Source of the DNA: Pyrinomonadaceae bacterium
GTDB lineage: Bacteria > Acidobacteriota > Blastocatellia > Pyrinomonadales > Pyrinomonadaceae
Direction of reading: 5' to 3'
Assembly (NCBI GenBank): GCA_036505595.1
Contig: DASXTE010000018.1
Location: 6,915-70,914, forward strand
DNA: 64,000 bases
The notes beneath the pieces are model-generated. The model was given only the letters and a program-made list of their open reading frames with translations, was not told the origin of the DNA and searched no databases. Within the stretch, counting starts at the first letter, position 1; the number at the start of each line of letters is the position of its first letter. Position numbers and translations under genes: made by a program. Below are positions 1,852 to 61,942 of the stretch, piece by piece.

Positions 1852-1926
1852 CAGAGGTCAGATATCAGAAGTCAGAGGTCAGCAAAAGCCGGGCGCACTG
1901 ACCTCTGATCTCTGACCGCTGATCTC
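1852..1926. repeat. heptad-word hairpin (word CAGAGGT / ACCTCTG); probable rpoD terminator
   Basis: Left arm 1852-1882 reads CAGAGGT CAGATAT CAGAAGT CAGAGGT CAG. Right arm 1898-1926 reads CTG ACCTCTG ATCTCTG ACCGCTG ATCTC. The 10 bp next to the loop pair perfectly. It fills the whole rpoD / next-gene spacer and is followed by TTTGTTT. Confidence 0.8.
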
Positions 1927-1927
1927 T

Positions 1928-3952
1928 TTGTTTATGAAGAAGATTGTCGAAAGCTATCGTAGGAAGCTCGCCAGCGAAGACGGCTGGGTGCTGAAGCCCG
2001 GGAGCCAGTTGCGCATCGCGCTCTGCTATCCGAATGTCTATTCGATCGGCATGGCGAACCTCGGCTTTCAGGCGATGTACGAACTCTTCAATAACATTCC
2101 TGAGGTTTCGTGCGAGCGGGTTTTCCTGCCGGACAGCAGCAGAGGGCCGAGCATCGGCGAGGGCTCAACATCCACGCGAGCCCTCCCTAACGGTCGGGCT
2201 ACTGCCCCGCGGCATCCCCGCAATGGATCGGGTTACGATTACGCCCTCCCTAATGGTCGGGCTACTGCCCCGATCAATGAACTCGCGGAATATCAACGCA
2301 CGGGAACTCCACTACTTTCCCTCGAATCACAAACTCAGGTTCGCGACTTTGACGTAATCGCGTTCTCCATTTCCTTCGAGACTGATTACGTCAACATGGC
2401 GCACATGCTGCAAATGAGCGGCGTGCCGGTTTGGGCGAAAGACAGGACAGAACGCGATCCGCTGGTTGTCATGGGGGGCGCGGCTTCGTTTCTGAATCCG
2501 GAACCGATCGCGGACTTCACTGATGTGATCGGTGTCGGCGAAGGCGAGATTCTCGGGCCGAAGCTGGTTGACGCAATCTTCGAAAATGATTCGAAGGAAG
2601 AACTGCTGCTGGCACTGGCGCGACAAGGCCGCGGTTTTTACGTGCCGTCACTCTATTTTGTCAGCTACAACGAAGACGACACGGTCGCTGCATACACGCC
2701 CACAGAAGCAGGCGTTCCGTCGCGCGTGGGCCGCGCAATCTCTGCTGAGAATCCGAAGGAAGGTAGTCTGCGCCGCGCGATTCGAAAGCAACAATTCGAT
2801 ATTGCCGCGCAACTCCGCCGTGATGAAGTATTTGCGCCATCGACCACAATTTTTGCGCCGCAAGCCGAGATGGGCGACCGATTCCTGATCGAAATATCGC
2901 GCGGCTGTTCGCAGGGTTGCCGCTTCTGCTGGGCAGGTTACAATTACTGGCCGCCACGCGTCGTGCCGGCGCGCGACATCCTCGCGAAAGCGAAAGCGTG
3001 GCGCGCAAAGACCGACAAGATTGGTTTGGTTTCAACCGCCGTCTGCGACCATCCCGAAATTAGTGAGATTCTGCACGGCCTGCGGGCTATGGATTATCGC
3101 ATCTCGGTTTCTTCGCTCCGGCTTGATCAGATTTCTGAGGAATTGTTGGACGCGCTGGTTGAATCGCGCGACCAGCAGATCGCCGTCGCGCCGGAAACCG
3201 GATCGGATCGCCTGCGTCGCGTGATCAACAAGAACCTGACCAACGACGAGATTGTGGACATCTGCGGCGCAGTTTTCGATCGCGGCATGCTGACGGTGAA
3301 ACTCTACCTGATGGTTGGCTTACCGACCGAAACCGACGAAGACCTCGCAGAAATGGTGAAACTAGTCGAGCGCATCAAGGATCGCATGTTGGAAGCCGGC
3401 AAGCGCTTCGGCCGTGCCGGCAAAATTATTCCCTCGCTTAACGGGTTTGTGCCCAAACCCAACACCCCGTTTCAGTGGGAAGCGATCTGCGATGAAAAAG
3501 AATTGAAACGACGGCTGAAGTGGGTCTGCAAACAACTCGCGCGTATTCCGAATGTAGAAGTCCGCGCGATGTCCGCGCGTATCGCCCACGAACAAGCGCT
3601 TTTCTCGTCCGGCGATCGTCGAATCGCGCCGGTGATCGAAGCGATGGCGCGTATGAATGGCGACCTCAACGCTGCGCTGCGCGAAACCGGAATCGATCCG
3701 GCGTTTCACACGAGCCGCGCGCGATCCTACGATGAAATTCTTTCGTGGGAGATTGTCGATTCGGGTCTGGGACGCGAGTTCATGGAACGCGAACACGAAC
3801 GATCGCACGAAGCTCGCTCAACCGCTCCCTGCCCTTCCGTCAATCAATGCACTCGCTGTGGAGTCTGCCCAACCACATGGCTCGCAGAAGCTCCTCCTGC
3901 GCTCGTGCAATTGCAGGCGTTCGCGACCAGTAGAGTGCCCGCTACCGTCTAA
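1928..3952 (+). CDS. radical SAM protein with N-terminal B12-binding-like domain (TIGR03960-like family)
   Basis: 674-aa ORF. Radical SAM cluster motif CSQGCRFCWAG. N-terminus ALCYPNVYSIGMANLGFQAMYELFN is typical of this family. The start may be ATG 1934. Confidence 0.8.
   Translation: MFMKKIVESYRRKLASEDGWVLKPGSQLRIALCYPNVYSIGMANLGFQAMYELFNNIPEVSCERVFLPDSSRGPSIGEGSTSTRALPNGRATAPRHPRNGSGYDYALPNGRATAPINELAEYQRTGTPLLSLESQTQVRDFDVIAFSISFETDYVNMAHMLQMSGVPVWAKDRTERDPLVVMGGAASFLNPEPIADFTDVIGVGEGEILGPKLVDAIFENDSKEELLLALARQGRGFYVPSLYFVSYNEDDTVAAYTPTEAGVPSRVGRAISAENPKEGSLRRAIRKQQFDIAAQLRRDEVFAPSTTIFAPQAEMGDRFLIEISRGCSQGCRFCWAGYNYWPPRVVPARDILAKAKAWRAKTDKIGLVSTAVCDHPEISEILHGLRAMDYRISVSSLRLDQISEELLDALVESRDQQIAVAPETGSDRLRRVINKNLTNDEIVDICGAVFDRGMLTVKLYLMVGLPTETDEDLAEMVKLVERIKDRMLEAGKRFGRAGKIIPSLNGFVPKPNTPFQWEAICDEKELKRRLKWVCKQLARIPNVEVRAMSARIAHEQALFSSGDRRIAPVIEAMARMNGDLNAALRETGIDPAFHTSRARSYDEILSWEIVDSGLGREFMEREHERSHEARSTAPCPSVNQCTRCGVCPTTWLAEAPPALVQLQAFATSRVPATV
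2180..2272 (+). repeat. two direct copies of a 30-nt REP-like unit, in frame inside the radical SAM CDS
   Basis: gccctccctaaCggtcgggctactgccccg (2180-2209) and gccctccctaaTggtcgggctactgccccg (2243-2272), 63 nt apart. Both translate as ALPNGRATAP. Related copies occur at 6949-6967, 25976-25996 (inverted) and 26070-26091. Confidence 0.85.
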
Positions 3953-4013
3953 TTCCCTTTCGAATCCAATCGGTGTCACCCGCTTATTAGCCCGACACGT
4001 GGGGGTTCTGTAG

Positions 4014-4406
4014 CTACTTAATAGTCAGAAAACTCGTGCTCTGTGCCGTGTAATCGAAATCGTAATTGTAAGTGAAGCCGGGAAATGAAATCGGACGGGT
4101 GAACTGCACGCGCACTTGTACGCGACCTTCTGTTTGTGAAGGCGTGATAACGGCATCTTCCGGAACGTGATATTCCGCTTTGCTTTTTGTGATCTGATCG
4201 GCGACCCACGCCGTGTCGTAGCCTTGTGCAGCCGCCAGATTCACCTTGTTCTGCATGGCGTCTTTGAAGTAGTAGGCATCGATGGCAACCGGAATGTACA
4301 TGTACGCGACGTAGCCGACGATCGCAACGACCGCAATGAAGACTATTAACTTCATGCGCGCGCTGCCTTTTTGACCTTGATGGCGAAGGAGTGATTCGGT
4401 ATTCAT
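4014..4406 (-). CDS. hypothetical membrane-anchored protein
   Basis: 130-aa ORF with one N-terminal TM segment (KLIVFIAVVAIVGYVAYMYIPV). An alternative start is M18 at 4355. No family recognised. Confidence 0.55.
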   Translation of the reverse strand: MNTESLLRHQGQKGSARMKLIVFIAVVAIVGYVAYMYIPVAIDAYYFKDAMQNKVNLAAAQGYDTAWVADQITKSKAEYHVPEDAVITPSQTEGRVQVRVQFTRPISFPGFTYNYDFDYTAQSTSFLTIK

Positions 4407-4412
4407 AGGTTT

Positions 4413-5803: not shown

Positions 5804-6802
5804 ATGATAACTCGCAACAATCTATGGTCTGCTCTGATCGTCATCGCTGCCGCGTTCATAATCGCGGCCAGCTCAACGCAAGCTCAAACCCGACGGCGCA
5901 CGGCGCGCGTGTCTGGTCCGCCGACGCTCTCGCTGTCAGCCGAGCCGAACGTCCTGCGCGTATGCGAAGGCGAGCCGGCGAGCGTACGTCTTTTTGCCAA
6001 CGCTTCGTCAGGCAGTGGCGCGGCGCTACGTTACCGATGGACCGTCGACGCCGGCCGGCTTTCAGGCAGCGGCGCAAATGCTGCATGGGACTTGGCGGGA
6101 GCCAGACCTGGTACGTACCACGCGGTCGCGGATGTCGATGAAGGCGACGAAAACTGCGCCGCATTCGCTTCGGTGACCATCGTTGTGACCGAGTGTCCTC
6201 CGCCGCCGCCACCGCCACCGCCCAGTTGCCCAACCGTAACCGTGTCTTGTCCGGACTCTGCGACGGAAAATGCGCCAGTAACATTTTCGGCTAATGTGAG
6301 CGGCGGCTCTTCGAACGTTACCCCAACCTACAACTGGACCGTTTCCGCTGGTCGCATAATGAGCGGCCAGGGAACAACCAGCATTACGGTTGACCCGGCT
6401 GGACTGGCCGGCCAGACGATTCGCGCAACTTTGGATGTGGGCGGCTACGGCATGCCGTGCCCGGCGAGCTGCACCGTGTCGATTCCGATTGAAGAGAAGT
6501 CGCGAAAATTTGACGAGTACTACGACATTGCCCGCAACGATGAGAAAGCGCGACTCGATAACTATGCGATCGAGCTCCAGGGCGCGCCCGGATCGCAGGG
6601 TTACATCATCGTGTATCCATCGCAAAAGGCGAAGGCTGGCGATGCGCAAGCGCGTGCAACACGCATTTCGGATTACCTGATCAACTCGCGCGGCATTGAC
6701 GCGAGCAGATTCACGGTCACCGTCGGCAAGGCGCGGGAAGGGTGGCTGACCGAACTGTGGATCGTTCCCCAGGGTGCGCCGCCACCTGTGCCCCAACGAT
6801 AA
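5804..6802 (+). CDS. secreted hypothetical protein with Ig-like repeats and a poly-Pro linker
   Basis: ATG at 5804 follows GAAGAGG. Signal-like N-terminus MITRNNLWSALIVIAAAFIIAASSTQAQ. PPPPPPPPP linker. The longer track ORF from 5687 has no signal peptide. Confidence 0.65.
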   Translation: MITRNNLWSALIVIAAAFIIAASSTQAQTRRRTARVSGPPTLSLSAEPNVLRVCEGEPASVRLFANASSGSGAALRYRWTVDAGRLSGSGANAAWDLAGARPGTYHAVADVDEGDENCAAFASVTIVVTECPPPPPPPPPSCPTVTVSCPDSATENAPVTFSANVSGGSSNVTPTYNWTVSAGRIMSGQGTTSITVDPAGLAGQTIRATLDVGGYGMPCPASCTVSIPIEEKSRKFDEYYDIARNDEKARLDNYAIELQGAPGSQGYIIVYPSQKAKAGDAQARATRISDYLINSRGIDASRFTVTVGKAREGWLTELWIVPQGAPPPVPQR

Positions 6803-6827
6803 GGTTCCTTCTGCTGAAGTGGTTTTC

Positions 6828-6866
6828 GGCGCGATTACCGACTTGTCGGGAGTCGCGCCTTTTTTT
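6828..6866 (+). terminator. intrinsic terminator
   Basis: Stem ggcgcga...tcgcgcc with an inner ccgac/gtcgg pairing, followed by a run of 7 T. It starts 26 nt after the stop codon. Confidence 0.75.
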
Positions 6867-6896
6867 GTGTGGTCAGTCGTCACTGCCTTGACTGTT

Positions 6897-6967
6897 GAGC
6901 CCTCCCGATCAACCACCCCACGCGGGCTGCCCGTGTGGGGACCCCGGCTGGTCGGGCTACTGCCCCG
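6897..6967. repeat. REP-like element (gccctccc ... ggtcgggctactgccccg family)
   Basis: It shares its head (gagccctccc) and tail (tggtcgggctactgccccg) with the 2180/2243 units. It has an internal hairpin ccccacgcggg/cccgtgtgggg. The tail supplies the last codons and stop of the minus-strand gene 6957..7595. Confidence 0.7.
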
Positions 6968-7595
6968 AGCGCACGACGGGCATGTGAATCAAAGTATCCT
7001 TCTCGACGTAGACAACGAACCGTTTTCCCTGCGGCAGCACCGCATCCTCTCCGCGTTTGAAACCACTCATCAAAGCGAGCGGCGACGCGAACGGCGCAAG
7101 CAAGACACCGAACACGATTGTCTTCGTCGCTACTTCGGCGCCGTGACTCGTACCGGTAACCTTGCTCGGCATTTCCGGATGCGCAGTTAACGGAACGCGG
7201 GTGAGATCGACCGCAACCACGTCTTGCATCGCCCAGGCAAGTTTGCCGGCCTTCCCCCAATGGCCACCGCGTTTTGCTTTAAGTACTCGAGCGGTGACCA
7301 GCGAATCCGATTCGATAACGGTAGTTCCGTCGACCTTAACCGGCACCAAGACCCGGAAGCTGAGGAAGTCACCCTTCCGCATGTCGCGGGAATTGACCGT
7401 ATCAGCCGCTTCGATCTCGAGTGGCGTGCCGGCGGGAATTACGAATTCGGGCGCAGCCGACTCCGCTCGATTGCTGCGATCCACTTCTGACACCTGGACG
7501 CGAATTCCTGCGGAGTCTGCGGGCGCGGGCGATTGCGCTAGCGCCGGTATTTGTTGAAGAACAATCGTCAACAGTGCAGTGAGCAGTGTTTTCAC
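6957..7595 (-). CDS. secreted hypothetical protein, paralog of the N-terminal part of 8276..9133
   Basis: GTG start at 7595, 8 nt after AGGAGG. Signal peptide VKTLLTALLTIVLQQIPALAQ. The C-terminal hydrophobic block (KTIVFGVLLAPFASPLALMSGFKRGEDAVLPQG) aligns by eye with AIVATSILFFPAAPLFLFMKGKNITIPQG of 8276..9133. Confidence 0.65.
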   Translation of the reverse strand: MKTLLTALLTIVLQQIPALAQSPAPADSAGIRVQVSEVDRSNRAESAAPEFVIPAGTPLEIEAADTVNSRDMRKGDFLSFRVLVPVKVDGTTVIESDSLVTARVLKAKRGGHWGKAGKLAWAMQDVVAVDLTRVPLTAHPEMPSKVTGTSHGAEVATKTIVFGVLLAPFASPLALMSGFKRGEDAVLPQGKRFVVYVEKDTLIHMPVVRSGQ

Positions 7596-16901: not shown

Positions 16902-17411
16902 ATGTCGGAAGCAAGTCAAAGCACTTCTGAGTTTCCCCGGCTACAGAAGATTCTGCTACCAACCGATTTCAGCGGCTGTGCCAACTTTGCGCTGCCATAC
17001 GCGGCTTCGATCGCACGCGCCACCGGAGCGACGATAATTTGCGTGCATGTGGTAGAGCCGGTCGTGCCTGCGGTTGGCTATACCGGTCTGGCCGAGCCGA
17101 TGCCGATCGCGGACATCAGCGATCAGTTGGAAGATTCTGCTGAACGACAACTGCCGAAGCTTGCCGAGTGTGACGAGTGCTCAGGCCTCGCCATGGAAGA
17201 AGTAATCGTGCATGGCGATGCCGCCGCTGAAATTGTGCGGGTCGCGGCTGAACGCCAGGTAGACTTGATTGTTATCTCATCTCACGGTCGTACCGGACTG
17301 GGTCGAATGATTTTCGGCTCGACCGCCGAAGCCGTCGTGCGACATGCCATTTGCCCCGTGCTCGTCGTAAAACCCCCACATGAGGAGGAAACTGAAGATA
17401 GTGAGCAGTGA
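16902..17411 (+). CDS. universal stress protein
   Basis: UspA fold motifs: ILLPTDFS at the N-terminus and VDLIVISSHGRTGLGRMIFGSTAEAVVRHAICPVLVV. Confidence 0.85.
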   Translation: MSEASQSTSEFPRLQKILLPTDFSGCANFALPYAASIARATGATIICVHVVEPVVPAVGYTGLAEPMPIADISDQLEDSAERQLPKLAECDECSGLAMEEVIVHGDAAAEIVRVAAERQVDLIVISSHGRTGLGRMIFGSTAEAVVRHAICPVLVVKPPHEEETEDSEQ

Positions 17412-17518
17412 GCAGCGGGCGGTGAGCAGTCAGAGTGGTTCGCCGTCTCTGTTTGGCTAATTTAGCGACTGTTCTTTCGTCTTTACTGCTCACTACTCAC
17501 TGCCCACTGCTCACTGAC
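17401..17518. repeat. heptad-word hairpin (word GTGAGCA / TGCTCAC)
   Basis: Left arm 17401-17433 reads GTGAGCA GTGAGCA GCGGGCG GTGAGCA GTCAG and contains the usp stop codon. Right arm 17487-17518 reads CTGCTCAC TACTCAC TGCCCAC TGCTCAC TGAC and ends 1 nt before the dedA ATG. The loop is about 50 nt. Confidence 0.8.
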
Positions 17519-19282: not shown

Positions 19283-19466
19283 ATGAACCGCAAAGCGGTT
19301 CGTGGCCTCCAGCCCAACGTTGCCGGGCAGCGGCTACGTTGGGAAAGAAAGAAGGAGGAGGTGAACTACCGCAAAGCGGTTGTGTCCGTCCCAGACTTTT
19401 TCTTTTTCCCACCGTAGCCGCTGCGCGACAACGGCGGGCTGGAGGTTTCAACCGCTTCGCGGTGGG
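19283..19466. repeat. large palindromic MITE-like element with CCGCAAAGCGG cores
   Basis: Left arm: gaaccgcaaagcggttcgtggcctccagccc..gcagcggctacgttgggaaag. Right arm: cccaccgtagccgctgc..gggctggaggtttcaaccgcttcgcggtg. The centre carries a third accgcaaagcggt. Confidence 0.75.
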
Positions 19467-21955: not shown

Positions 21956-21966
21956 AAAGCCGGGAA

Positions 21967-22032
21967 GCAGACGGCAGGCGGCAGGAGGCAGGGACATGGG
22001 TTGGCCAGACTGCAGGAGGCAGACGGCAGGAG
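21967..22032. repeat. heptad-word array GCAGACG (left flank of the four-helix-bundle gene)
   Basis: GCAGACG GCAGGCG GCAGGAG GCAGGGA at 21967-21993, and TGCAGGAG GCAGACG GCAGGAG at 22011-22032. Positions 22013-22032 are a perfect 20-nt reverse complement of 22466-22485. Confidence 0.85.
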
Positions 22033-22036
22033 TAAA

Positions 22037-22411
22037 CTAACCGCTGAATCTCTCTGGCTTGAGAATCATGCCGCCCAGCATTCTTCCCAGCTCTTCGTAT
22101 CGACTCGTTAAGTAAACTTGAGTGTCCGGCGACAAATAACCACAATCGCGAGCGAAGTCCAACCATACTTGTGTTTCTGTGGCTTCGCCGTCAGCGTCCA
22201 CCATCTTGCTCACGAACATCCTAGGATAGCGCTTCTTTCGGTAGCCCTCCGCAACGTTCGCTGCCACGCTGCGCGAGGCGCGTCGAATCTGATCGGTTAG
22301 CGAGTATTTTTCTTCGATGGGAAAATGCTTTGACTCTCTGAAAATTTCCATCGCCAATTCATAAGCTAGCTGGTAAGCCTTCAGGTCTCGGAATCCTCGT
22401 GGGAGTGACAT
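22037..22411 (-). CDS. four helix bundle protein (23S rRNA intervening-sequence protein family)
   Basis: 124 aa. Family signature FPIEEKYSLTDQIRRASRSVAANVAEGYRK. Confidence 0.85.
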   Translation of the reverse strand: MSLPRGFRDLKAYQLAYELAMEIFRESKHFPIEEKYSLTDQIRRASRSVAANVAEGYRKKRYPRMFVSKMVDADGEATETQVWLDFARDCGYLSPDTQVYLTSRYEELGRMLGGMILKPERFSG

Positions 22412-22417
22412 TGTTAT

Positions 22418-22486
22418 CCTGCCTCCTGCTGTTTGCCGTCTGCTTTCTGTGGTCCTGCCGTCCGCCTCCTGCCGTCTGCCTCCTGG
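22418..22486. repeat. heptad-word array CCTGCCG (right flank, complement of 21967-22032)
   Basis: CCTGCCT CCTGCTG TTTGCCG TCTGC ... CCTGCCG TCCGCCT CCTGCCG TCTGCCT CCTGG. It abuts the recR stop at 22492. Confidence 0.85.
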
Positions 22487-22491
22487 TTCTT

Positions 22492-23110: not shown

Positions 23111-23234
23111 GTCTTTGTACTTTGAACTTTGTACTTAGTGTTTTGTCGTTTGGGCCAATCTAGCCGCGAGTTCTAAAGAGCACGAATCGCCAGGAGATCA
23201 AAGTACAAAGAACCAAGTACAAAGGACAAGAACC
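23111..23234. repeat. heptad-word hairpin (word CTTTGTA / CAAAGTA) between ybaB and recR
   Basis: Left arm 23111-23147 reads CTTTGTA CTTTGAA CTTTGTA CTTAGTG TTTTGTC. Right arm 23196-23234 reads CAAAGTA CAAAGAA CCAAGTA CAAAGGA CAAGAAC. The loop is about 48 nt. Confidence 0.8.
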
Positions 23235-24381: not shown

Positions 24382-24433
24382 CGAATTAGTAATCTGGAAG
24401 GACATGACCAGACGGGAACTGACAGTTCAGTGC

Positions 24434-24629
24434 GCGAAGCGGACGCTTGGAAATAGCCCAGCGATTCATCGCTGGGTAATGGGCAAAAGAAGAATTAATG
24501 AGTCCGCAAAGCGGACGGCAGAAAATGTTGCGGGCCATACTCTGTCGCCCGTTTCACGGGCTTTTTGGTTCCTGCGGCGTTCGATTCCCAGCACTAAAGT
24601 GCTGGGCTATTGCCGCTCGTCCGCTTCGC
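24434..24629. repeat. large palindromic MITE-like element (same CGC[AG]AAGCGG family as 19283-19466)
   Basis: Left arm: cgcgaagcggacgcttggaaatagcccagcgattcatcgctggg. Right arm: cccagcactaaagtgctgggctattgccgctcgtccgcttcgcg. Central gtccgcaaagcggac. It is read through by the spurious 5' part of track ORF 24161..25309. Confidence 0.75.
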
Positions 24630-24664
24630 GGACTTCCAAACCCATCCGGACAAACGGAATTGTT

Positions 24665-33240: not shown

Positions 33241-33345
33241 ATTTGACATTTGACATTTGTCATCTGTCATTTAGTCATTTAGCAGGGCGTGTCCCTCGCT
33301 GAACCAATGGCAAATGAAAAATGTCAAATCCCAAATGTCAAATGG
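33241..33345. repeat. heptad-word hairpin (word ATTTGAC / CAAATGT)
   Basis: Left arm 33241-33282 reads ATTTGAC ATTTGAC ATTTGTC ATCTGTC ATTTAGTC ATTTAG. Right arm 33311-33345 reads CAAATGA AAAATGT CAAATCC CAAATGT CAAATGG. ATG 33307 of the next gene lies 2 nt upstream of the right arm, at the 3' end of the loop, so codons 2-13 are translated from the right arm. Confidence 0.8.
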
Positions 33346-34971
33346 ATTGTTGCTTTCGCTGTCCTTCTGCTTATCGCAGCCGGCTTCCGCATTTCCGTCG
33401 CGCATTGGTTGCCGAACGACTCGCCTGACGATGGACGCGTCTACGCGCAGATGGCGCGGAACGTTCTTGAGCAACATGTCTATTCCCACGATGCTGAACC
33501 ACCGTACAACCCTTCGTTGATTCGACTTCCGGGTTATCCGCTCTTTCTCGCGGCGATCTATGCGGTCTTCGGCCACGATAACAACGGTGCAGTCCGCGTC
33601 ATCCAGGCACTGATTGATACAGCGACGTGCGTACTGATCGCGCTGATCGCGTTTTTCTGGCAGCCTGACGAGAAGAAGAAACTTACGAGCGCGGCGGCGG
33701 CCCTCGCATTGGCCGTGGTGTGTCCATTCACGACGATTTACGCAGCGACGATCCTGACAGAAGTGCCAACCAATTTTCTGCTGATGGCCATGTTGGTTGC
33801 GGTGACGCTGGCTTTCAGGAAATCAACCACAGAGGGCACAGAGGAAGACAACCAGACAGAATTCAAGACTGCATTGGCTTGGTGGTGTGTTGCAGGATTG
33901 ATTGGCGGGCTGGCAGTGCTGATGCGACCCGACAACGGATTGTTTCTGGCGGCGGTCGGGATCACCCTGGTCGTTTCTAACCTTTGGCCTTTGGTTTTAG
34001 GTCTTTGGCAAAGACCAAAAGCCAAAGACCCAAGATCAAAGACCCGCATCGCGCGACTCATTGTCTCGGGCGCCGTTCTCCCTTTCGCATTCGTGCTGGT
34101 GCTCGCTCCGTGGACGATTCGCAACTGGCGCATCTTTCATCTTTTCCAACCGCTCTCGCCTGCTCACGCTGAAATGCCCGGCGAGTTTGTCCCGCACGGT
34201 TACCTGCTCTGGGTGCGCACTTGGCTCGACGACGATAGTTACGTCGCGCCGTTTCTCTGGTCGCTGGATACCGATGAAATCGATGTTGACGATCTGCCGG
34301 CCGGCGCGTTCGATTCCACCGAAGAAAAGAACCGCGTTGCGGCGTTGCTCGACAAATACAACAGTGCGGACGAGTCGGAGGCGCCAGCTGCGGACGAAGG
34401 AACCGAAACCAATCCCAACCCGAAAGCGACACCGCAACCTTCGCCTGAAGCCCAGAAGAACGAAGAAGAAGACAAAGGTGATGAGTCTGAAGCGTCTGAA
34501 GAACCGCCCTCGGTGGAGATGACGCCGGAGATTGATGTCGGCTTTGCCCAAATAGCGCGCGAAAGAATCGCGCGGCATCCGTTTCGTTACTACATTTGGC
34601 TGCCGATCAAACGCGCACGCACGATGTGGTGCGACACCCATTCGCAGTACTGGCCATTTGAAGGAACGCTACTGCCTCTCGACGACCTGGATTACGAACA
34701 TCATCAGCAAATCTGGCTGCCGCTGTTTGCGGGATTGACGGCCGTTTACACGCTGCTGGGTTTACTGGGTGCGTGGTTTTTGTGGCGTACGCGAAAACTC
34801 GACACGCGGCGGTGGCTGCTGCTAGTGACGCTCGCAATCCTCCTGAGACTCATGCTCTTTTCGTTTCTGGAAAATCCCGAGCCGCGCTACCTGGTAGAGT
34901 TCTTTCCGTTCCTGTCAGTGCTCGGTGGGCTGTTCGTTGGGCGGCTGTTGCCAGCCGAATTGATCAGGTAA
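33307..34971 (+). CDS. GT-C fold membrane glycosyltransferase (family 39 / ArnT-PMT-like)
   Basis: Multiple TM helices. First-loop motif LPNDSPDDGRVYAQMARNVLE and LPGYPLFLAAIY. Acidic low-complexity periplasmic insert. Confidence 0.7.
   Translation: MANEKCQIPNVKWIVAFAVLLLIAAGFRISVAHWLPNDSPDDGRVYAQMARNVLEQHVYSHDAEPPYNPSLIRLPGYPLFLAAIYAVFGHDNNGAVRVIQALIDTATCVLIALIAFFWQPDEKKKLTSAAAALALAVVCPFTTIYAATILTEVPTNFLLMAMLVAVTLAFRKSTTEGTEEDNQTEFKTALAWWCVAGLIGGLAVLMRPDNGLFLAAVGITLVVSNLWPLVLGLWQRPKAKDPRSKTRIARLIVSGAVLPFAFVLVLAPWTIRNWRIFHLFQPLSPAHAEMPGEFVPHGYLLWVRTWLDDDSYVAPFLWSLDTDEIDVDDLPAGAFDSTEEKNRVAALLDKYNSADESEAPAADEGTETNPNPKATPQPSPEAQKNEEEDKGDESEASEEPPSVEMTPEIDVGFAQIARERIARHPFRYYIWLPIKRARTMWCDTHSQYWPFEGTLLPLDDLDYEHHQQIWLPLFAGLTAVYTLLGLLGAWFLWRTRKLDTRRWLLLVTLAILLRLMLFSFLENPEPRYLVEFFPFLSVLGGLFVGRLLPAELIR
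33981..34044. repeat. heptad-word hairpin (word CCTTTGG / CAAAGAC) in frame inside a CDS
   Basis: CCTTTGG CCTTTGG TTTTAGG TCTTTGG, then CAAAGAC CAAAAGC CAAAGAC CCAAGAT CAAAGAC. It is translated as LWPLVLGLWQRPKAKDPRSKT between TM segments. Confidence 0.8.
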
Positions 34972-37448: not shown

Positions 37449-37553
37449 GACTTTGCGTTCCTTTGCGCCTTTGCGACTTGGCGTGAATCGATAATGGGAA
37501 ATGATAATTCACGCAAAGGCGCGAAGACGCAAAGTGGCGCAAAGAACAAAGTC
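37449..37553. repeat. word hairpin (word CTTTGCG / CGCAAAG); probable gltX terminator
   Basis: Left arm reads CTTTGCG TTCCTTTGCG CCTTTGCG ACTTGGCG TGAAT. Right arm reads ATTCA CGCAAAGG CGCGAAGA CGCAAAGTGG CGCAAAGAA CAAAGTC. The right arm overlaps the gltX stop at 37552. Confidence 0.8.
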
Positions 37554-39057: not shown

Positions 39058-39139
39058 AAAGAAAAGGCAAAAGTAAAAAGGTAAAAGGCAAAAGAACGAG
39101 CCACGAGTTTTGCCTTTTTACTTTTTCCTTTTGCCTTTG
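39058..39139. repeat. heptad-word hairpin (word AAAAGGC / GCCTTTT) between tRNA-Ser and gltX
   Basis: Left arm reads AAAAGGC AAAAGTA AAAAGGT AAAAGGC AAAAG. Right arm reads TTTTGCC TTTTTAC TTTTTCC TTTTGCC TTTG. The loop is aacgagccacga. It starts directly next to the gltX start codon and ends 6 nt from the tRNA 3' end. Confidence 0.8.
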
Positions 39140-39145: not shown

Positions 39146-39236
39146 TGGCGGAGATGAGAGGATTCGAACCTCTGAAGGGCTTTTGACCCTTAACGGTTTA
39201 GCAAACCGCCGCCTTCAGCCACTCGGCCACATCTCC
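39146..39236 (-). tRNA. tRNA-Ser (anticodon GCT)
   Basis: Folded by hand. Acceptor GGAGATG/CATCTCC. 3-bp D stem (GCC/GGC). Anticodon stem GCGGT/ACCGT with loop TTGCTAA. Long variable arm AAGGG..CCCTT. T arm AGAGG-TTCGAAT-CCTCT. Discriminator G and an encoded CCA. Confidence 0.9.
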
Positions 39237-39278
39237 GCAACGATACGAAAAGTTATTCTAAAGCGCGCTAAATCAAAG

Positions 39279-39707
39279 TCAAGGCAACTCAGGCTGCGGT
39301 GTCGTTACCGAACTGAGATAGAGTTTTTTGCTCTCAACACTGAAGCAAAACCACAGCGCGTAAATCGCAAGCAAGGTTCCCAGCGGAATGATCCACGCAA
39401 CCATGATCGCCGCGAAGATGCCCCAGATGCGCGCGCCTGGTTTTCGCTTCCACATCTTGCGGCTCGCCATCGCCGTGGGCAACACCAGGACCAAGCCGAG
39501 GCCGAGATAGAAAACGACGGCGAACACACCTCCGAGCACGCCGAAGCCGGCTTGATTCATGTCCCCGGTTTCGTTCGCGAAAGAAATCCCCAGCGCAACA
39601 AAAACTCCAAGACTGACAAGCATCAACAACAAAAACGTCAACCCGAATAATGCGGCGAAGACGGCAAAACCGATCGCCAGATACTTGTTATGTTCGGCTG
39701 CTGTCAC
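39279..39707 (-). CDS. hypothetical 4-TM membrane protein
   Basis: 142 aa with four hydrophobic segments. Downstream of and co-oriented with arsR. No family recognised. Confidence 0.5.
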   Translation of the reverse strand: MTAAEHNKYLAIGFAVFAALFGLTFLLLMLVSLGVFVALGISFANETGDMNQAGFGVLGGVFAVVFYLGLGLVLVLPTAMASRKMWKRKPGARIWGIFAAIMVAWIIPLGTLLAIYALWFCFSVESKKLYLSSVTTPQPELP

Positions 39708-46497: not shown

Positions 46498-47376
46498 ATG
46501 GCTTCGATCAAACGCATTGGCGTAGTCGTCAAACCGCATCAACCCGATGCTCTGGAAACCCTCTGTCGATTGACCCAATGGCTCAACGAGCGGGGGATAA
46601 CTCTGGTTGGGCTTCCGGAAATTGAACGCGAAAGGATCGAGCACCAGACTGGCTGTGTAGTTGAGGTTGTTGACGGCGCTGAGATTGCCCGGCAAGTCGA
46701 TCTGATGCTGGTGCTTGGCGGTGACGGCACCATGATCGCCACGGCGCGGACGATTGGCGACACCGAAGTGCCGGTGATGGGAGTCAACTACGGCGGCCTT
46801 GGCTATCTCGCTGAGTTCCGAATCGAAGAGTTGTTCACGGCGTTAGAGTCAATCCTGGCTGGTGATTATAAACTTGAAAAGCGCGTAATGCTTGCGGTTG
46901 AGCTGCGGCGCGGCGACGAGCTAGTGACCAAGAACCGCGTGCTGAATGACGTCGTGATGAACAAGTCGGCGCTGGCGCGCATTATCGAAATTGAGACGTA
47001 TCTGACTGCGCAGTTTGTAAACTCATTTCGCGCGGACGGTCTGATAGTGGCCACGCCCACCGGCTCGACGGCTTATAATCTGTCGGCGGGTGGCCCGATA
47101 ATCTTTCCATCGATGAACGCGGTTGTCATCACTCCGATTTGTCCGTTCACTTTGTCGAACCGGCCGATTGTGGTGCCGGATGATTCAGTGATTGAAGTGC
47201 GCTTGATGACCGAAAAAGAAGAAGTTGCCTTGACGCTTGACGGCCAGGTTGGCTTTCCATTGCAAGTCGGCGACCGCGTCGTCATTCGCAAGAGCGATAC
47301 ATCTTTCAATCTCGTGCAACCAAAGAGTCGAAATTATTTTGATCTGTTGAGAGACAAGCTTCGCTGGGGAAGATGA
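46498..47376 (+). CDS. nadK: NAD kinase
   Basis: GGDGTMIATAR and ATPTGSTAYNLSAGGPI motifs. Start taken at MASIKRIGVVV. Confidence 0.9.
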   Translation: MASIKRIGVVVKPHQPDALETLCRLTQWLNERGITLVGLPEIERERIEHQTGCVVEVVDGAEIARQVDLMLVLGGDGTMIATARTIGDTEVPVMGVNYGGLGYLAEFRIEELFTALESILAGDYKLEKRVMLAVELRRGDELVTKNRVLNDVVMNKSALARIIEIETYLTAQFVNSFRADGLIVATPTGSTAYNLSAGGPIIFPSMNAVVITPICPFTLSNRPIVVPDDSVIEVRLMTEKEEVALTLDGQVGFPLQVGDRVVIRKSDTSFNLVQPKSRNYFDLLRDKLRWGR

Positions 47377-48737
47377 AACTCGAAACCCGAAACTCGAAAT
47401 TCGAAACTGCGAAGCGCCCCTGGTACCGGCCTTCCCTGACGACGCAAATCCTCATTGGCCTGGTTCTCGGTGGATTGATTGGATACCTCGGTCGGCGCTG
47501 GGGTTACAATTGGGGCAACAACGTCTATTTCCTTCGGGACATTTTTCTCAATCTCATCAAATCAATCATCGCGCCGCTGATCTTTTCGACGCTGGTTGTC
47601 GGCATTGCCGGCGGCGGCGAACTGAAAAAAGTCGGGCGCATGGGCGTGAAGGCGCTGCTCTACTTTGAGATCGTCACGACCATCGCGCTGTTCATCGGGC
47701 TGGCGATCGTTAATCTCACGAAACCGGGCGCGGGTGTTGCGTTAGTTGGTGGCAGCGACATCACTTCGCTCGTGAAGACACAGCCACAGGGCTTTCGCGA
47801 TCTAATCGTGCACATCTTTCCCGCGAGCGTCATCGACTCGATGGTACGCGGCGACGTGCTGCAAATTGTGGCGTTCTCAGTGTTGTTCGCGATGGCCGTT
47901 TCGGCGATGGGCGAGAAAGCCGCACCGATTCTGCGAGGCTGTGAAGCGCTTTCGCAGGTAATGTTCAAGTTCACCAACTACGTGATGATGTTTGCTCCGA
48001 TCGGGGTAGGCGCGGCAATGGCCCACACCATCGCTACGAATGGACTCGAAGTCTTGTGGAACCTCGGGAAGTTAATTGGTTCGCTGTATCTCGCGCTTTT
48101 CCTGCTCGTCTTTTTCGTGATGGGAGCGGTCATGATCATCGCGCGTGTTCCGATTATTCAGTTTCTCAAAGCGGTGCGCGAGCCTTTCACGATCGCCTTC
48201 GCCACGACGAGCAGCGAATCGGCCCTCCCGAAAGCCATGGAGAACATGGAGAGGCTCGGTGTGCCGCGGCGCATCGTCGGGTTTGTGATGCCGACCGGCT
48301 ACAGCTTCAACCTCGATGGCACGACGCTTTATCTGGCGATGGCTTCAGTCTTCGTCGCGCAAGCGGCCGAGCCGGTTATCGGCCACATGAGCTTTGGTCG
48401 TCAGATCGTGATGATGCTGACGCTCATGATTACTTCGAAAGGCGTTGCGGGCGTTCCGCGCGCGGCGCTGGTCATTCTGCTGGCGACGCTGAACAGCTTT
48501 ATGCCGGGCGGACTTGGACCAATCGGAGTCGCGGTGATCTTCGGCGTAGACGAATTGATGGACATGGGCCGCACTTCCGTGAATGTTTTGGGAAATTGTC
48601 TGGCTACCGTCGTCGTGGCGCGCTGGGAGGGTGAGTTCGACGATGACAAGGCGCGCGTGTTCGGCACACCGGAGGAAGTGAAGCGCGAGTTGGCGGCCGG
48701 CGAAGTGGCGCTCGCGGAAGCAGCCGCGGAAGGATAA
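47373..48737 (+). CDS. dicarboxylate/amino acid:cation symporter (DAACS/GltP family)
   Basis: 454 aa. SSESALP-type motif (TTSSESALPKAMENM) and PTGYSFNLDGT. The start overlaps the nadK stop (ATGA). Confidence 0.85.
   Translation: MKLETRNSKFETAKRPWYRPSLTTQILIGLVLGGLIGYLGRRWGYNWGNNVYFLRDIFLNLIKSIIAPLIFSTLVVGIAGGGELKKVGRMGVKALLYFEIVTTIALFIGLAIVNLTKPGAGVALVGGSDITSLVKTQPQGFRDLIVHIFPASVIDSMVRGDVLQIVAFSVLFAMAVSAMGEKAAPILRGCEALSQVMFKFTNYVMMFAPIGVGAAMAHTIATNGLEVLWNLGKLIGSLYLALFLLVFFVMGAVMIIARVPIIQFLKAVREPFTIAFATTSSESALPKAMENMERLGVPRRIVGFVMPTGYSFNLDGTTLYLAMASVFVAQAAEPVIGHMSFGRQIVMMLTLMITSKGVAGVPRAALVILLATLNSFMPGGLGPIGVAVIFGVDELMDMGRTSVNVLGNCLATVVVARWEGEFDDDKARVFGTPEEVKRELAAGEVALAEAAAEG
47375..47409 (+). 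repeat. unpaired heptad tandem array (GAAACTC x5) in the first codons of the symporter gene
   Basis: GAAACTC GAAACCC GAAACTC GAAATTC GAAACTG. I found no complementary array within about 100 nt on either side. Confidence 0.8.
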
Positions 48738-49582: not shown

Positions 49583-49996
49583 ATGGCAACTGAACTGGCG
49601 CCGACAAACGTACAAGGCCTCGATATTCGCTCGACTCCGCGCGCAGAGATGAAGCTCTATCCGCTCGACACCTTCGCTTACGAATTTCCGGGCAAAGAGA
49701 TCAAGATCAATTTTGAGATTCCCGAATTCACCTGCATCTGCCCGTTTTCAGACTTTCCGGACTTTGCCACGATTCGCATAGAGTACGTGCCGAACGAACG
49801 ATGCGTCGAGTTGAAGAGTCTGAAGCTCTACATCAATTCATTTCGTGACGTGAAGGTCTTTCACGAGCATGTCATCAACATGATCCTCGAAGACTTTGTG
49901 AACGCTTGCGAACCTTTGAGCGTAGAGATCGAAGGCGACTTCAACGTTCGCGGAAATATCAAGACGACAGTGCGGTCGAGTTACAGACGACAGTGA
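49583..49996 (+). CDS. queF: NADPH-dependent 7-cyano-7-deazaguanine (preQ0) reductase
   Basis: [42 protein letters not shown] (type I QueF). Confidence 0.9.
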
Positions 49997-50018
49997 GCAG
50001 TGAGCGACGTACGACGTG
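49991..50018 (+). repeat. unpaired heptad array (CAGTGAG x2, CGACGT[AG] x2) bridging the queF stop and the next start
   Basis: CAGTGAG CAGTGAG CGACGTA CGACGTG. It contains the queF TGA and the GTG start at 50016. The word is the same as in the 17401 hairpin. Confidence 0.7.
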
Positions 50019-50258: not shown

Positions 50259-50259
50259 A

Positions 50260-50344
50260 GTCAGTACCATCCGCGTCAGCGGATGGGCAGTCGAATCGAT
50301 TCCGATGAGCTATTAACCCATCTCCTGACGGAGATGGTACTGAC
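50260..50344. repeat. composite REP-like palindrome (two inner hairpins within an outer stem)
   Basis: Outer stem gtcagtac / gtactgac. Inner hairpins ccatccgc-gtca-gcggatgg and ccatctcc-tgac-ggagatgg. Confidence 0.75.
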
Positions 50345-50355
50345 TCAGTTTACCC

Positions 50356-50664: not shown

Positions 50665-50675
50665 AGCGAGCACGA

Positions 50676-50766
50676 GCCACGAAAAGGCACAAAAAGCACA
50701 AAAGGAAAACTCAGCTCTGATCGGAGTTCGTTTTTCTGATTTGTGCCTTTTGTGCATTTTTGTGGC
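50676..50766. repeat. word hairpin (word GCACAAAA / TTTTGTGC)
   Basis: Left arm: GCCACGAAAAGGCACAAAAAGCACAAAAGGAAAAC. Right arm: GATTTGTGCCTTTTGTGCATTTTTGTGGC. It fills the cupin / polA-like spacer. Confidence 0.8.
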
Positions 50767-50775
50767 TAAATCAAT

Positions 50776-52560: not shown

Positions 52561-52562
52561 TT

Positions 52563-52680
52563 CCCTCTCCCACTGGGAGAGGGTTAGGGTGAGGGTCCGA
52601 AGGTTAGCGGGCGGCAACTTCTTTTTTTGTTGCTCGTTAGCTTCGCCCCTCACCCCGGCCCTCTCCCAAAAGGAGAGGGA
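52563..52680. repeat. inverted pair of ccctctccc..gggagaggg REP units
   Basis: ccctctcccactgggagagggttagggtgaggg and cccctcaccccggccctctcccaaaaggagaggg. A single related unit occurs at about 62866-62895. Confidence 0.75.
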
Positions 52681-54456: not shown

Positions 54457-54488
54457 TCCTGAGTTCGTTTTCGGCTCCCTTCATCCAG

Positions 54489-60701: not shown

Positions 60702-60732
60702 GCACTGGGATAGAGAGGTCTCTCGCATAGCG

Positions 60733-61422
60733 ATGCGTCGCGCAACACGAATAAACGGATTCACGCTTATCGAGCTGGTGATCACGGTCGCCGTCCTCGC
60801 GATTTTGACCCTCGGCGTGATTCCGCTCATGCGAGTTTCAGTCAAGCGGCAAAAAGAAGAGCAATTGCGCGCCGCGTTACGCGAGATGCGCGAAGCGATC
60901 GATCAATTTCATCGCGAGGCGCTGATGGGGGCCTCAATGCAGGCCATACAGCAGGCTCAGTCGTCTACGGCACAACAGGAGCAGGCACCGCGGTCCACCG
61001 CGGCCCAGACGCAGCAGAACATTTTTGCCGATCCGCGGGTGCGTGTTTTCATTACCGATCAGACAATCTTCAGCTCCGACAACCCGGATCGTTATCCGCC
61101 CGATCTGGAAACACTTGTCGATGGTGTGGACGTGCTGCCGTTAACGCTGCCTGCCCAATTGCAAGGCGGCCAGGGAATTACGGGCGCCGGCATACTTGAG
61201 CGAACTGAAAATTCGGCAATTCCCAAAACTAAGATTTATCTGCGGCAGCTTCCCATCGATCCGATGACCGGCAAAGCTGACTGGTGCGTCAGCTCCAGTT
61301 ATGAACCCGCCGAAGATTCGAAACACGGCTGTCACTCGAGCGGCGATGGCGAAAATGTCTTCAATGTTCACTCGAGGTCAGAAGGCGAAGCGCTTGATGG
61401 GACAAAATACCGTGACTGGTAA
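60733..61422 (+). CDS. prepilin-type N-terminal cleavage/methylation domain protein (pseudopilin)
   Basis: MRRATRING/FTLIELVITVAVLAILTLGVIP class III signal. Confidence 0.8.
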   Translation: MRRATRINGFTLIELVITVAVLAILTLGVIPLMRVSVKRQKEEQLRAALREMREAIDQFHREALMGASMQAIQQAQSSTAQQEQAPRSTAAQTQQNIFADPRVRVFITDQTIFSSDNPDRYPPDLETLVDGVDVLPLTLPAQLQGGQGITGAGILERTENSAIPKTKIYLRQLPIDPMTGKADWCVSSSYEPAEDSKHGCHSSGDGENVFNVHSRSEGEALDGTKYRDW

Positions 61423-61506
61423 CGGCAGACGGCAGACGGCGGGGAGCAGAAGGCAGGAGACAGAGCGAACTTTTCTGCCGTCTGGCTCCTGCCGCCTGGC
61501 GCCTGG
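61423..61506. repeat. heptad-word hairpin (word GGCAGAC / GTCTGCC), same word family as 21967-22486
   Basis: Left arm reads GGCAGAC GGCAGAC GGCGGGGA GCAGAAG GCAGGAG ACAG. Right arm reads TCTGCCG TCTGGCT CCTGCCG CCTGGCG CCTGG. It starts 1 nt after the upstream stop codon and runs into the G-F cleavage-site codons of the next pseudopilin. Confidence 0.85.
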
Positions 61507-61870
61507 GTTTACTCTTCTCGAGCTGATGATCGTAATTTCGGTCATCATCATTCTCGCCGCGATCGCTCTGCCGCAATATCAAAAAACGATCATGCACGCG
61601 CGCGAAACGGTTCTGCGCGACGATCTATACCGGATGCGCGTTCTGATCGATCAGTACGCCGCCGACAAGGGCAAGCTGCCGCAATCGCTGGAAGACCTGG
61701 TCAGCGCTGGTTACATGCGCGAAATCCCCAAGGATCCAATTACCGACCAGCCGGATTGGGTGCCGGTGCAGGGCGACGACCCTTACACGGGCGAAAGTGG
61801 CATGATCGATATCCGCAGCGCATCTACGGAAGCCTCGACTGAAGGAGGCAAGCCATATAATGAGTGGTAG
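61475..61870 (+). CDS. gspG: GspG-like major pseudopilin; start codon unresolved
   Basis: GFTLLELMIVISVIIILAAIALPQYQK... and LPQSLEDLVSAGYMREIPKDPITDQPDW are classic GspG sequences. There is no in-frame ATG, GTG or TTG between the upstream stop (61422) and the GF site (61505). Only CTG codons at 61475 and 61496 are available. Confidence 0.6.
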   Translation: MPSGSCRLAPGFTLLELMIVISVIIILAAIALPQYQKTIMHARETVLRDDLYRMRVLIDQYAADKGKLPQSLEDLVSAGYMREIPKDPITDQPDWVPVQGDDPYTGESGMIDIRSASTEASTEGGKPYNEW

Positions 61871-61873
61871 TCC

Positions 61874-61942
61874 GCGATTTTTGATTTTAGATTTGCGATT
61901 GATTTTGCGTGAGCGTCAATTACAAATCTGAAAATCAAAAAT
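61874..61942. repeat. heptad-word hairpin (word GATTTTN / NAAAATC) ending in the next start codon
   Basis: Left: GATTTTTGATTTTAGATTTGCGATTG. Right: CAATTACAAATCTGAAAATCAAAAAT (61917-61942). The A and T of ATG 61941 are part of the right arm. Confidence 0.8.

Follow-up and report, generated by a model that had tools for sequence, protein, structure and literature searches.

Hairpins built of tandem short words in a Pyrinomonadaceae contig and their likeness to rRNA intervening sequences

Analysis of 64 kb of contig DASXTE010000018.1 from a Pyrinomonadaceae bacterium (the window, to which the whole of our analysis of the host genome was limited) revealed eleven sites, next to or within genes such as rpoD, recR, gltX and a membrane glycosyltransferase gene, at which three to six imperfect copies of a short word, read by eye, are followed by a loop and then by their reverse complement (Table 1). 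One of these hairpin elements, at 21963-22486, still holds a gene for a protein of PF05635, the 23S rRNA-intervening-sequence protein family, and the other ten or so lack an open reading frame (ORF) of their own. A sequence-only reading of the window had proposed inverted arrays of words of about 7 nt at these places, and they were borne out at all of them by reading, by Tandem Repeats Finder (TRF) and by an inverted-repeat finder, and at the ten ORF-less sites also by folding.

TRF called 18 period-7 arrays in the window, compared to a mean of 1.57 and a maximum of 3 in 40 dinucleotide-preserving shuffles, as well as six period-14 arrays, compared to 0.42. Ten of the window arrays had a reverse-complement partner within 750 nt and none did in any of the 40 shuffles, so that the predicted excess of period 7 over a dinucleotide-shuffled control held for single and for paired arrays. 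Arrays were called on both arms at every site except 61874, where TRF called the 5' array only, and 37449, where the 3' array was called with a period of 18. A unit of 7 nt, close to the length that had been claimed throughout, applied to most sites but not to 37449 and 50676, where the periods were 8 and 9, respectively. Arm complementarity ranged from 77 to 92%, and all ten ORF-less sites folded into a single long imperfect stem of 30-40 bp with a loop of 10-55 nt, a folding free energy (dG) of -28 to -60 kcal/mol and a z score of -3.0 to -9.1. About eight distinct words occur among the arrays within 64 kb, and the ORF-less versions alone occupy a quarter of the window spacers. The motif CA[AG]A, said to begin most of the words, occurred in eight of ten words in the window (2.5 expected, P about 1e-4) and, more weakly, in 11 of 40 words of other genomes (5.6 expected, P 0.012). 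An Rfam scan of the window at gathering score matched none of the heptad hairpins and found no rRNA.

Table 1. Repeat-built elements of the window and the gene enclosed by one of them. Neighbouring genes were named by Pfam scans and tRNA-Ser by ARAGORN; IVP denotes the window's PF05635 protein.
Position	Strand	Feature	Support
1852..1927		ORF-less hairpin, CAGAGGT (TCAG core), about 4.4 units per arm, spacer between rpoD and a radical-SAM gene	TRF, fold dG -41.9, z -6.0
17400..17516		ORF-less hairpin, AGTGAGC (= GCAGTGA, GCAG core), spacer between a Usp gene and a VTT-domain gene	z -6.4
21963..22032		IVP cassette, outer arm, two arrays of GGCAGAC/GGCAGGA words	TRF, inverted-repeat finder
22037..22411	-	Gene for a 124-aa PF05635 protein (23S rRNA-intervening-sequence protein, four-helix bundle, bAvd-like)	Pfam E 3.8e-32
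22418..22486		IVP cassette, second arm, complementary arrays of CCTGCCG/TCTGCC words	TRF, inverted-repeat finder
23113..23229		ORF-less hairpin, CTTTGTA, spacer between ybaB and recR (both minus)	z -3.1
33241..33344		Hairpin, ATTTGAC; 3' arm supplies the start codon and first ~12 codons of a membrane glycosyltransferase gene	z -6.3
33981..34044		Hairpin, CCTTTGG, in frame in the glycosyltransferase ORF, in a length-variable loop between membrane helices	z -4.9
37451..37552		ORF-less hairpin, period-8 words CCTTTGCG, downstream of gltX and upstream of a SnoaL-like gene (both minus)	z -6.7
39062..39138		ORF-less hairpin, AAAAGGC (= GGCAAAA), from tRNA-Ser to the gltX start codon (minus)	z -6.6
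47375..47413	+	Unpaired array, GAAACTC x5.4, coding for the N-terminus of a sodium:dicarboxylate symporter	TRF
50675..50767		ORF-less hairpin, period-9 words GCACAAAAA, spacer between a cupin gene and a PolA-like gene	z -9.1
61422..61506		Hairpin, GGCAGAC words as in the IVP cassette, in frame in a pseudopilin leader peptide	z -3.0
61874..61942		ORF-less hairpin, GATTTTN, from a pseudopilin gene to the next gene; 3' arm ends on the ATG of the latter	z -5.4

The element at 21963-22486 is a cassette in which two sets of GGCAGAC-type arms surround the IVP gene; read on the minus strand, its second arm provides AGGAGG, a purine-rich stretch immediately before the IVP start codon. Database relatives of IVP number 4748; those closest to it (76-98% identity) are named four-helix-bundle proteins of Pyrinomonadaceae and Blastocatellia, which places the window in an acidobacterium of this group. 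The nearest solved homologs, PDB 2gsc and 2rld, have five chains per entry each, and a Xanthomonas PF05635-type protein has been described as a homopentameric toroid (PMC4990558). Contigs encoding an identical RecR came from five near-identical strains, two of which carry the cassette and three of which (L001, L004 and L005; L-numbers denote fetched related loci) lack it. In the latter three, flanks 96% identical to those of the window are joined by 15 nt (GCGCGCGCAGCGCGC) from recR to the convergent gene, with neither arms nor IVP gene; since arms and gene are both present or both absent in near-identical strains, they are gained or lost as one unit. The 15-nt spacer of L001 (3616-3630, corresponding to window 21956-22491) is itself a GC palindrome that has no counterpart at the cassette ends, so that the loss was not a simple excision. 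The recR-side cassette was also found in species merely 70-79% identical to the window, in either orientation.

A scan for IVP in one genome per species (185k species) yielded 80 loci at 58-88% identity, distributed over Acidobacteriota, Chloroflexota (Anaerolineales and others), Bacteroidota, Nitrospira, Clostridia, Chlorobiaceae, Balneolaceae and Fidelibacterota. Of the 79 loci whose flanks were usable, 51 had inverted period-7 arms around the IVP gene, built of words such as GGCAGAA, GGCAGTA, GGCAGAC, GGCAGGA and GGCAGTC in up to 13 units per arm and with an invariant GCAG core; by a rough count of our own that assumes ~700 genes, ~4 other genes in the same DNA are similarly flanked. The GCAG core was also seen at period 6, as GCAGTG x4 upstream of 5001 in L081 (Tunicatimonas) and as GCAGAA in L013. 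In L033, GGCAGTG/GGCAGAA words precede a decayed, partly duplicated and frameshifted IVP gene (6600-7100), and an intact copy lies a few kb away. Plasmids searched with IVP by tblastn gave 21 matches, mostly cyanobacterial. Among these, inverted GCAGAGG/GCAGGGG arms flank the three Nostocales copies (Nostoc edaphicum, N. punctiforme and Brasilonema), and a Leptolyngbya copy has GGGGAGA arms. The Oscillatoria nigro-viridis PCC 7112 plasmid copy (L170, NC_019730.1 8629-9764) has long GGAGAGT/GGGGAGA arrays on both sides of the IVP gene, and these are in direct orientation and thus form no hairpin.

IVSs of 23S rRNA that bear a PF05635 (S23p) ORF are known from Coxiella burnetii, Leptospira, Xanthomonas and Brucella, and many other rRNA IVSs lack an ORF. 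Another of the tblastn matches, an IVP homolog from Azospirillum lipoferum 4B, lies some 1150 nt from the 5' end of what Rfam shows to be a full-length 23S rRNA gene, between an array reading CAGAGGA CGGATGA CAGAGGA CGGAGGA CAGAAAG and its mirror array (ACAG/ACGG core), and is a true 23S IVS. The IVS of Coxiella burnetii combines a 28-bp stem of terminal inverted repeats with an S23p ORF and has two to three tandem GACAGAT heptads upstream of the ORF, their number depending on the strain; in its excision, RNase III cuts at the first heptad repeat (PMC4990558). Given similar arms in the Azospirillum IVS and the heptads known from the Coxiella IVS, the window cassette is an IVS-type element outside rRNA. 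The architecture is thus common to several phyla and includes a true 23S IVS.

These arm words bear on the claim that the window hairpins share an architecture but not a sequence, and are in this respect the opposite of a repeat family. That claim did not survive the comparison: words with a CAG core occur at four window sites (GCAG at 17401, 21967 and 61423, TCAG at 1852) and are of the type that flanks PF05635 genes in Acidobacteriota, Chloroflexota and Nostocales (GCAG) and in the Azospirillum IVS (ACAG/ACGG). Nor is each word confined to one site; GCAGACG occurs at two sites of the window, and AGTGACG and CGAAACT occur twice each within L027. The CGAAACT hairpins of L027 are akin to the unpaired array at 47375-47413, which is probably the remaining half of a former hairpin; relics consisting of the 3' arm alone were found in L087 and L100. 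Two copies of CAGTGAG right after the queF stop codon (49991-50005) repeat the word of the 17400 hairpin and may be a remnant. Beyond the window, the 80 IVP loci (about 680 kb) contained 36 further hairpins that do not flank IVP and 80 glycosyltransferase loci contained ~19 more, with many words. No trinucleotide core was common to the 56 ORF-less words; A-runs and TCA were merely enriched.

Comparison of orthologous spacers, which the sequence-only reading had proposed as a way to learn whether words are conserved, drift or arise anew, gave a divided answer, in that core words were conserved across 60-78% divergence at some sites and replaced at others by another word, a cassette or nothing. 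Window 16.8-27.4 kb has syntenic counterparts, of 70-79% nucleotide identity, in six related loci (L006-L010 and L017), and all six carry an IVP cassette between recR and the phosphoribosyltransferase gene. Relative to the flanks, IVP is oriented in L006, L007 and L009 opposite to the window, L008, L010 and L017, a flip that would be expected from recombination across the inverted arms or from independent insertions. In the ybaB|recR spacer, a CTTTGTA hairpin is common to the window, L001, L006 and L007, among which its loop is unrelated and its number of units varies. The hairpin of L010 is built of a different word (GGAATGC/ATTTCGG), and in L008 and L017 the spacer holds a second PF05635 gene, distinct from the first and flanked by GGGGCCA/GGAGCCA arms. 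The loop of the CTTTGTA hairpin differs by a 7-nt indel (cgcggct) between the window (about 23165-23172) and L001 (about 2945), strains that are 96% identical and have identical arms. Between the Usp and VTT-domain genes, the AGTGAGC of the window is matched by AGTGAGC/AGTAAGC in L017, and L006 has AGTAGGC, AGCAAGC, AGACGGC and AGAAAGC, which are ordinary IVP-type GCAGnnn words without a gene. Between the NUDIX and phosphoribosyltransferase genes, L009, L010 and L017 have an AAGGATG hairpin, and the window, L001, L006 and L007 have a spacer of 46-50 nt without one; the hairpin-free spacer of the window contains a single TTCATCAC-like unit, compared to (CATCCTT)x4 in the relatives. The sites at 17401, 50676 and 61423 had identical sequence in the near-identical strains wherever a record existed. 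Hairpin, hairpin with another word, cassette and empty spacer are thus alternative states of orthologous spacers, and core words are long-lived at orthologous sites. The idea that the elements change in place by repeat units fits these data, since copy number differs among orthologs and the core word stays.

Not all of the elements lie between genes, as had been stated; the hairpins at 33981 and 61423 are in frame and the 3' arm at 33241 holds a start codon, which puts three of them within coding sequence. The gene enclosed by the cassette had also gone unnoticed. The hairpin at 61422-61506 lies in an unusually long pseudopilin leader of ~37 aa, directly before G|FTLLELMIV; the leader of the neighbouring pseudopilin has 9 residues. 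Two elements belong to the 560-aa membrane glycosyltransferase, for which a metagenome scan provided 80 orthologous loci of 52-69% identity. The 3' arm of the first (33241-33344) supplies the sole start codon that is in frame and precedes the first membrane helix of the protein, and codes for a conserved N-terminal peptide, MKNEKWKMxNGKW. This hairpin was retained in closer orthologs as ATTTGAC, ATTTGCC, ATTTGTC, ATTTCTC or ATTTTTC, with a fixed CATTT core and two variable positions that change together on both arms, and in L087 and L100 its coding 3' arm alone remains. The second hairpin (33981-34044) is internal and lies where two membrane helices are joined by a loop, of which distant orthologs have a short version. 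The closest orthologs of the window protein have a loop sequence similar to the hairpin-coded stretch, and a hairpin itself was detected in the window and in L095 only, the latter with the word TGGTCTT at about the same codons. In-frame copies thus occupy permissive coding positions. In other orthologs, the same loop (window aa about 225-250) contains in-frame peptides typical of repetitive extragenic palindromic (REP)-like palindromes: WSAPAERSGDGALE...SALSKAAPSRRTPKGRF and WSAVASAARHRFGS...DPKRRRRFALPAHS, in L094, L096-L098, L104 and L145 and in L091, L099, L100, L108, L115, L129 and L164. For annotation, this means that such hairpins can give proteins N-terminal extensions, spurious or real, and in-frame inserts.

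In long indel-free arrays, differences between units were confined to two or three phases of the heptad, the other four or five positions being fixed; for example, differences per phase were [4,0,0,0,3,5,0] for GGTCATC in L063 and [1,0,5,0,0,1,5] for GCAGAAG in L040. This concentration was modest when all arrays were pooled. ORF-less arms had a median of 4.8 units (interquartile range 4.1-5.9), compared to a median of 8 in cassettes. Very long arms were seen at 838-1185 and 6406-6993 of L063 (GGTCATC x13 and AAAGTCC/AAGGTCG), where loops of 195 and 486 nt are packed with nested GC-rich palindromes; hairpin loops thus seem to draw further palindromic insertions.

As had been proposed, the ORF-less hairpins fill the spacers in which they lie, the median gap being 4.5 nt to the upstream gene and 8 nt to the following one (window and fetched loci); at 17400-17516, 3 nt separate the 3' arm from the next ATG. 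Neighbouring genes were co-directional, convergent or divergent for 32, 7 and 5 of these hairpins, compared to 372, 114 and 90 background spacers, with no clear difference; depletion from divergent spacers, which hold promoters, was not significant (5 of 44 hairpins and 90 of 576 background spacers). Judged by eye, eight of ten window hairpins lack a U tract and adjoin or overlap the next start codon, and so must be transcribed through. Consensus terminator and promoter scans gave counts equal to those in shuffles. A probable example of read-through is provided by tRNA-Ser(GCT) (39146-39282 region), which has a good σ70-like match upstream (TTGACT-16-TAGAAT) and is followed by a heptad hairpin that leaves no space for a separate gltX promoter; the arrangement of tRNA, hairpin and gltX suggests a tRNA-mRNA co-transcript.

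On balance, we think it probable, though by no great measure, that the heptad hairpins and bacterial rRNA IVSs are elements of one kind, the hairpins being mostly without an ORF and evolving in place by unit slippage. An IVS-type cassette would consist of two arms of tandem short words, usually of 7 nt with a core of 4-5 nt and two or three variable positions, and of a loop with or without a gene for a PF05635 four-helix-bundle protein. Such elements would settle where they do no harm, namely exactly in the gap from a stop codon to the next start codon, or within leader peptides that are cleaved off, N-terminal extensions and the variable loops of membrane proteins, and would be co-transcribed with their neighbours. 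As RNA, they would form imperfect duplexes of 30-40 bp that, like rRNA IVS stems, may be cut by RNase III, which could separate or destabilise the cistrons on either side. Each locus would gain and keep a word of its own by unit gain and loss, with the arms kept complementary. By the same analogy, the hairpins are probably RNase III substrates; the long RNase III-type stems that had been put forward for these sites are plausible by comparison with the Coxiella 23S IVS (PMC4990558).

Several observations weigh against this interpretation. Cutting by RNase III is argued here by analogy only, and it would destroy messages that have a start codon in an arm (33241 and 61874) or a hairpin in the coding sequence (33981 and 61423), so that those copies must escape cleavage or be repressive. 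A tblastn search found no trace of PF05635 in the loops of 14 large ORF-less hairpins; any descent of the ORF-less hairpins from cassettes is therefore conjectural. No transposase-like gene was linked to the elements, and the single pair of empty and filled recR sites showed no target-site duplication, the whole spacer being swapped for the 15-nt GC palindrome. At ybaB|recR, hairpin and cassette are built of unrelated words (CTTTGTA and GGGGCCA), and many ORF-less words elsewhere (GGTCATC, AAGGATG and CGAAACT) have no CAG core.

Some of the same observations would suit a purely local origin, in which a short inverted repeat grows by replication slippage on both arms, the long stem is selected or tolerated, and PF05635 genes are passengers that home into loops, the ORF-less hairpins being their targets and not their kin. 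PF05635 genes home into hairpin tips of 23S rRNA. Locus-specific words with cores that are long stable at orthologous sites, the varying copy number among orthologs, the lone TTCATCAC-like unit in the NUDIX spacer and the palindromic nature of the 'empty' L001 recR site all agree with such an origin, as do ORF-less loops without gene remnants and the other palindromes nested in the loops of large hairpins, which mark loops as insertion targets. However, the GCAG arm core accompanies the PF05635 gene across phyla and into rRNA, and because core and gene travel together the arms are hard to explain as local products of each target. ORF-less hairpins with exact cassette words also exist (61422-61506, the Usp|VTT spacer of L006, L040 and L075), and variation within arrays falls mainly in two or three unit phases, which plain slippage with uniform mutation would not predict. 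We regard a purely local origin as rather unlikely.

A bolder form of the IVS-type interpretation would unite rRNA IVSs, dispersed four-helix-bundle genes, the heptamers of cyanobacteria and Xanthomonas and the acidobacterial hairpins in one mobile palindromic superfamily. The pentameric PF05635 protein would recognise, in RNA or single-stranded DNA, the phased CAG-core units of its own cassette arms, for propagation or self-control, and ORF-less copies would be non-autonomous and in part recruited by the host for processing or translational control. This broader scheme is speculative, and as a whole we consider it unlikely.

A related proposal is that an oligomeric protein binds the phased words, for which the pentameric PF05635 protein or a paralog for each word class would be the foremost candidate, with one core per subunit on a single-stranded arm, by which the folding of the stem and hence translation or processing of the adjacent gene would be controlled. 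The tryptophan RNA-binding attenuation protein (TRAP) binds spaced GAG triplets and provides the analogy. A core of 4-5 nt with two or three variable spacer positions, its retention at periods of 6, 7, 8 or 9 (as in GCAGTG x4 of L081, and in L013) and the overlap of arms with Shine-Dalgarno-like stretches and start codons are consistent with such sites. The median of 4.8 units in ORF-less arms would likewise suit the five chains in 2gsc and 2rld and the Xanthomonas toroid (PMC4990558), and a heptamer-binding protein has been independently postulated for Nostoc (bioRxiv 10.1101/2022.06.06.494920). The match of five units per arm to a pentamer was nevertheless unconvincing, since the median for arms that flank IVP is 8 units and a clean arm can reach 13 (L024), and since TRF is blind below about 3 units. 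In addition, a single PF05635 gene in the window would have to serve about eight words, and related PF05635 genes (L008/L017 compared to L051) carry unrelated words. We regard this proposal as quite improbable.

That the hairpins are ordinary terminators or attenuators that happen to be repeat-built is very unlikely. In its favour are their position at gene ends, the T-rich 3' arm or tail of a few (TTGTTT at 1852, a T-rich arm at 39062) and the convergent neighbours of one cassette and seven ORF-less hairpins. Against it, most stop 0-8 nt short of the following start codon, with no space for a promoter, or lie inside coding sequence, and neither the periodicity nor the link to PF05635 would be explained. 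An intrinsic terminator has a short GC-rich stem, a small loop and a U tract, compared to the long stems and loops and the scarcity of U tracts observed here, in agreement with the sequence-only reading that these are not plain intrinsic terminators. The consensus scan flagged none of the hairpins whole and gave no excess over shuffles, which is weak evidence because it accepts only loops of 3-8 nt.

Comparison of the window elements with rRNA IVSs, the system to which we liken them, reveals both likeness and difference. In both, the element is bracketed by terminal inverted repeats in a long stem, and a PF05635 ORF may occupy the loop, as it does in the window at 22037-22411 only, the other ten sites having none. 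Tandem heptads at the stem are shared with the IVSs of Coxiella and Azospirillum, though they are not a formal criterion of an IVS. Unlike rRNA IVSs, the window elements lie in mRNA spacers and coding sequence, with flanks that encode proteins or tRNA-Ser and no rRNA; their words are diverse, and ten of eleven lack an ORF.

Heptanucleotide repeats have been noted in other bacteria. Cyanobacterial short tandemly repeated repetitive (STRR) heptamers were reportedly described by Mazel and colleagues in 1990, and like these and the heptamers of Xanthomonas, the window arrays are enriched in intergenic DNA. Intergenic tandem heptamers of Xanthomonas (GGGAATC) and Nostoc (GGGGA(C/T)T) prefer about four units (Rehm et al. 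2015, PMC4692102), and each Xanthomonas genome has 70-75 convergent GGGAATC pairs able to form stem-loops (PMC4692102). Those repeats use essentially one word genome-wide and were studied as G-quadruplex formers, in contrast to the about eight words of the window, which are mostly not G-rich, nearly all paired and linked to PF05635. The fixed words of the cyanobacterial and Xanthomonas-type repeats, CCCCAGT, TTGGTCA, CAACAGT and GGGAATC, were absent among the window arrays called by TRF. Intergenic TAACTGA arrays of Beggiatoaceae, Cyanobacteria and Bacteroidetes comprise two to six units and end a few nt before start codons (MacGregor 2015, PMC4679880); their genomes have few Shine-Dalgarno sites, and a role in translation has been suggested (PMC4679880). 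They differ from the window elements in being almost all direct (one inverted in 170), with one word genome-wide and no hairpin.

Other palindromic families share position or context with the window hairpins but not their structure. The Correia/NEMIS elements of Neisseria and similar MITEs (miniature inverted-repeat transposable elements) are inverted repeats in co-transcripts that are cut by RNase III, altering the stability of flanking cistrons. The window hairpins resemble them as small palindromes between co-transcribed genes, for which processing is likewise proposed here, by analogy, as the mode of action; unlike them, MITEs share sequence, have defined terminal repeats and target-site duplications and lack 7-nt periodicity. 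Rickettsia palindromic elements (RPEs), said to have been described by Ogata and colleagues in 2000 as in-frame palindromes within protein genes, find a likeness in the hairpins at 33981-34044 and 61422-61506, the 3' arm of 33241-33344 and the array at 47375-47413, but RPEs form a sequence family with conserved copies of 100-150 nt and have no heptad substructure.

Several classes of known element were considered and rejected. REP sequences and REPINs share a palindrome of 20-40 nt, compared to about eight words in 64 kb here and the absence of a core among the 56 ORF-less words. The target-site duplication and shared terminal repeats of a MITE were not found at the single filled and empty recR site. 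Integron attC sites, which came into question as hairpins alike in shape but not in sequence between co-directional genes, do not fit syntenic housekeeping genes as flanks (rpoD, recR, gltX and tRNA-Ser), and no R''/R' GTTRRRY core was seen in the arms. A CRISPR array is at odds with repeats that are inverted and contiguous and, again, with syntenic housekeeping genes, and a diversity-generating retroelement with the absence of reverse transcriptase among 20 ORFs next to hairpins that were compared to Pfam.

Over-representation of heptamers in some bacteria and inverted heptamer pairs in Xanthomonas are thus already known. What appear to be new are the many words in one genome, their near-universal pairing into hairpins, the link of heptad arms to PF05635 across phyla, within and outside rRNA, and the interchange of hairpin and cassette at orthologous sites; in the literature consulted, the Coxiella paper (PMC4990558) was the only one found to connect heptamers with an IVS. 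Three separate old puzzles are joined in this way, namely the nature and origin of rRNA IVSs, the function of the very widespread PF05635 proteins and the over-representation of heptamers, as one cassette of gene and heptad arms is shared by a true 23S IVS, cyanobacterial plasmids and the housekeeping-gene spacers of soil Acidobacteriota and Chloroflexota. The role of IVSs becomes more testable as well, with hairpin, cassette and empty sites providing a natural allelic series for effects on expression.

The window also contains intergenic palindromes of other kinds. Non-periodic REP-like palindromes, unlike the heptad hairpins, lie at 19306-19445, 50259-50345 and 52562-52680, with arms of 48, 29 and 34 nt, respectively. 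Two copies of Acido-Lenti-1 RNA (RF01687), at 24429-24476 on the minus strand and 24587-24634 on the plus strand, scored 38.2 and 37.1 bits (gathering score 37); they are inverted within a 421-nt spacer upstream of the gene at 24161 and together form an inverted repeat.

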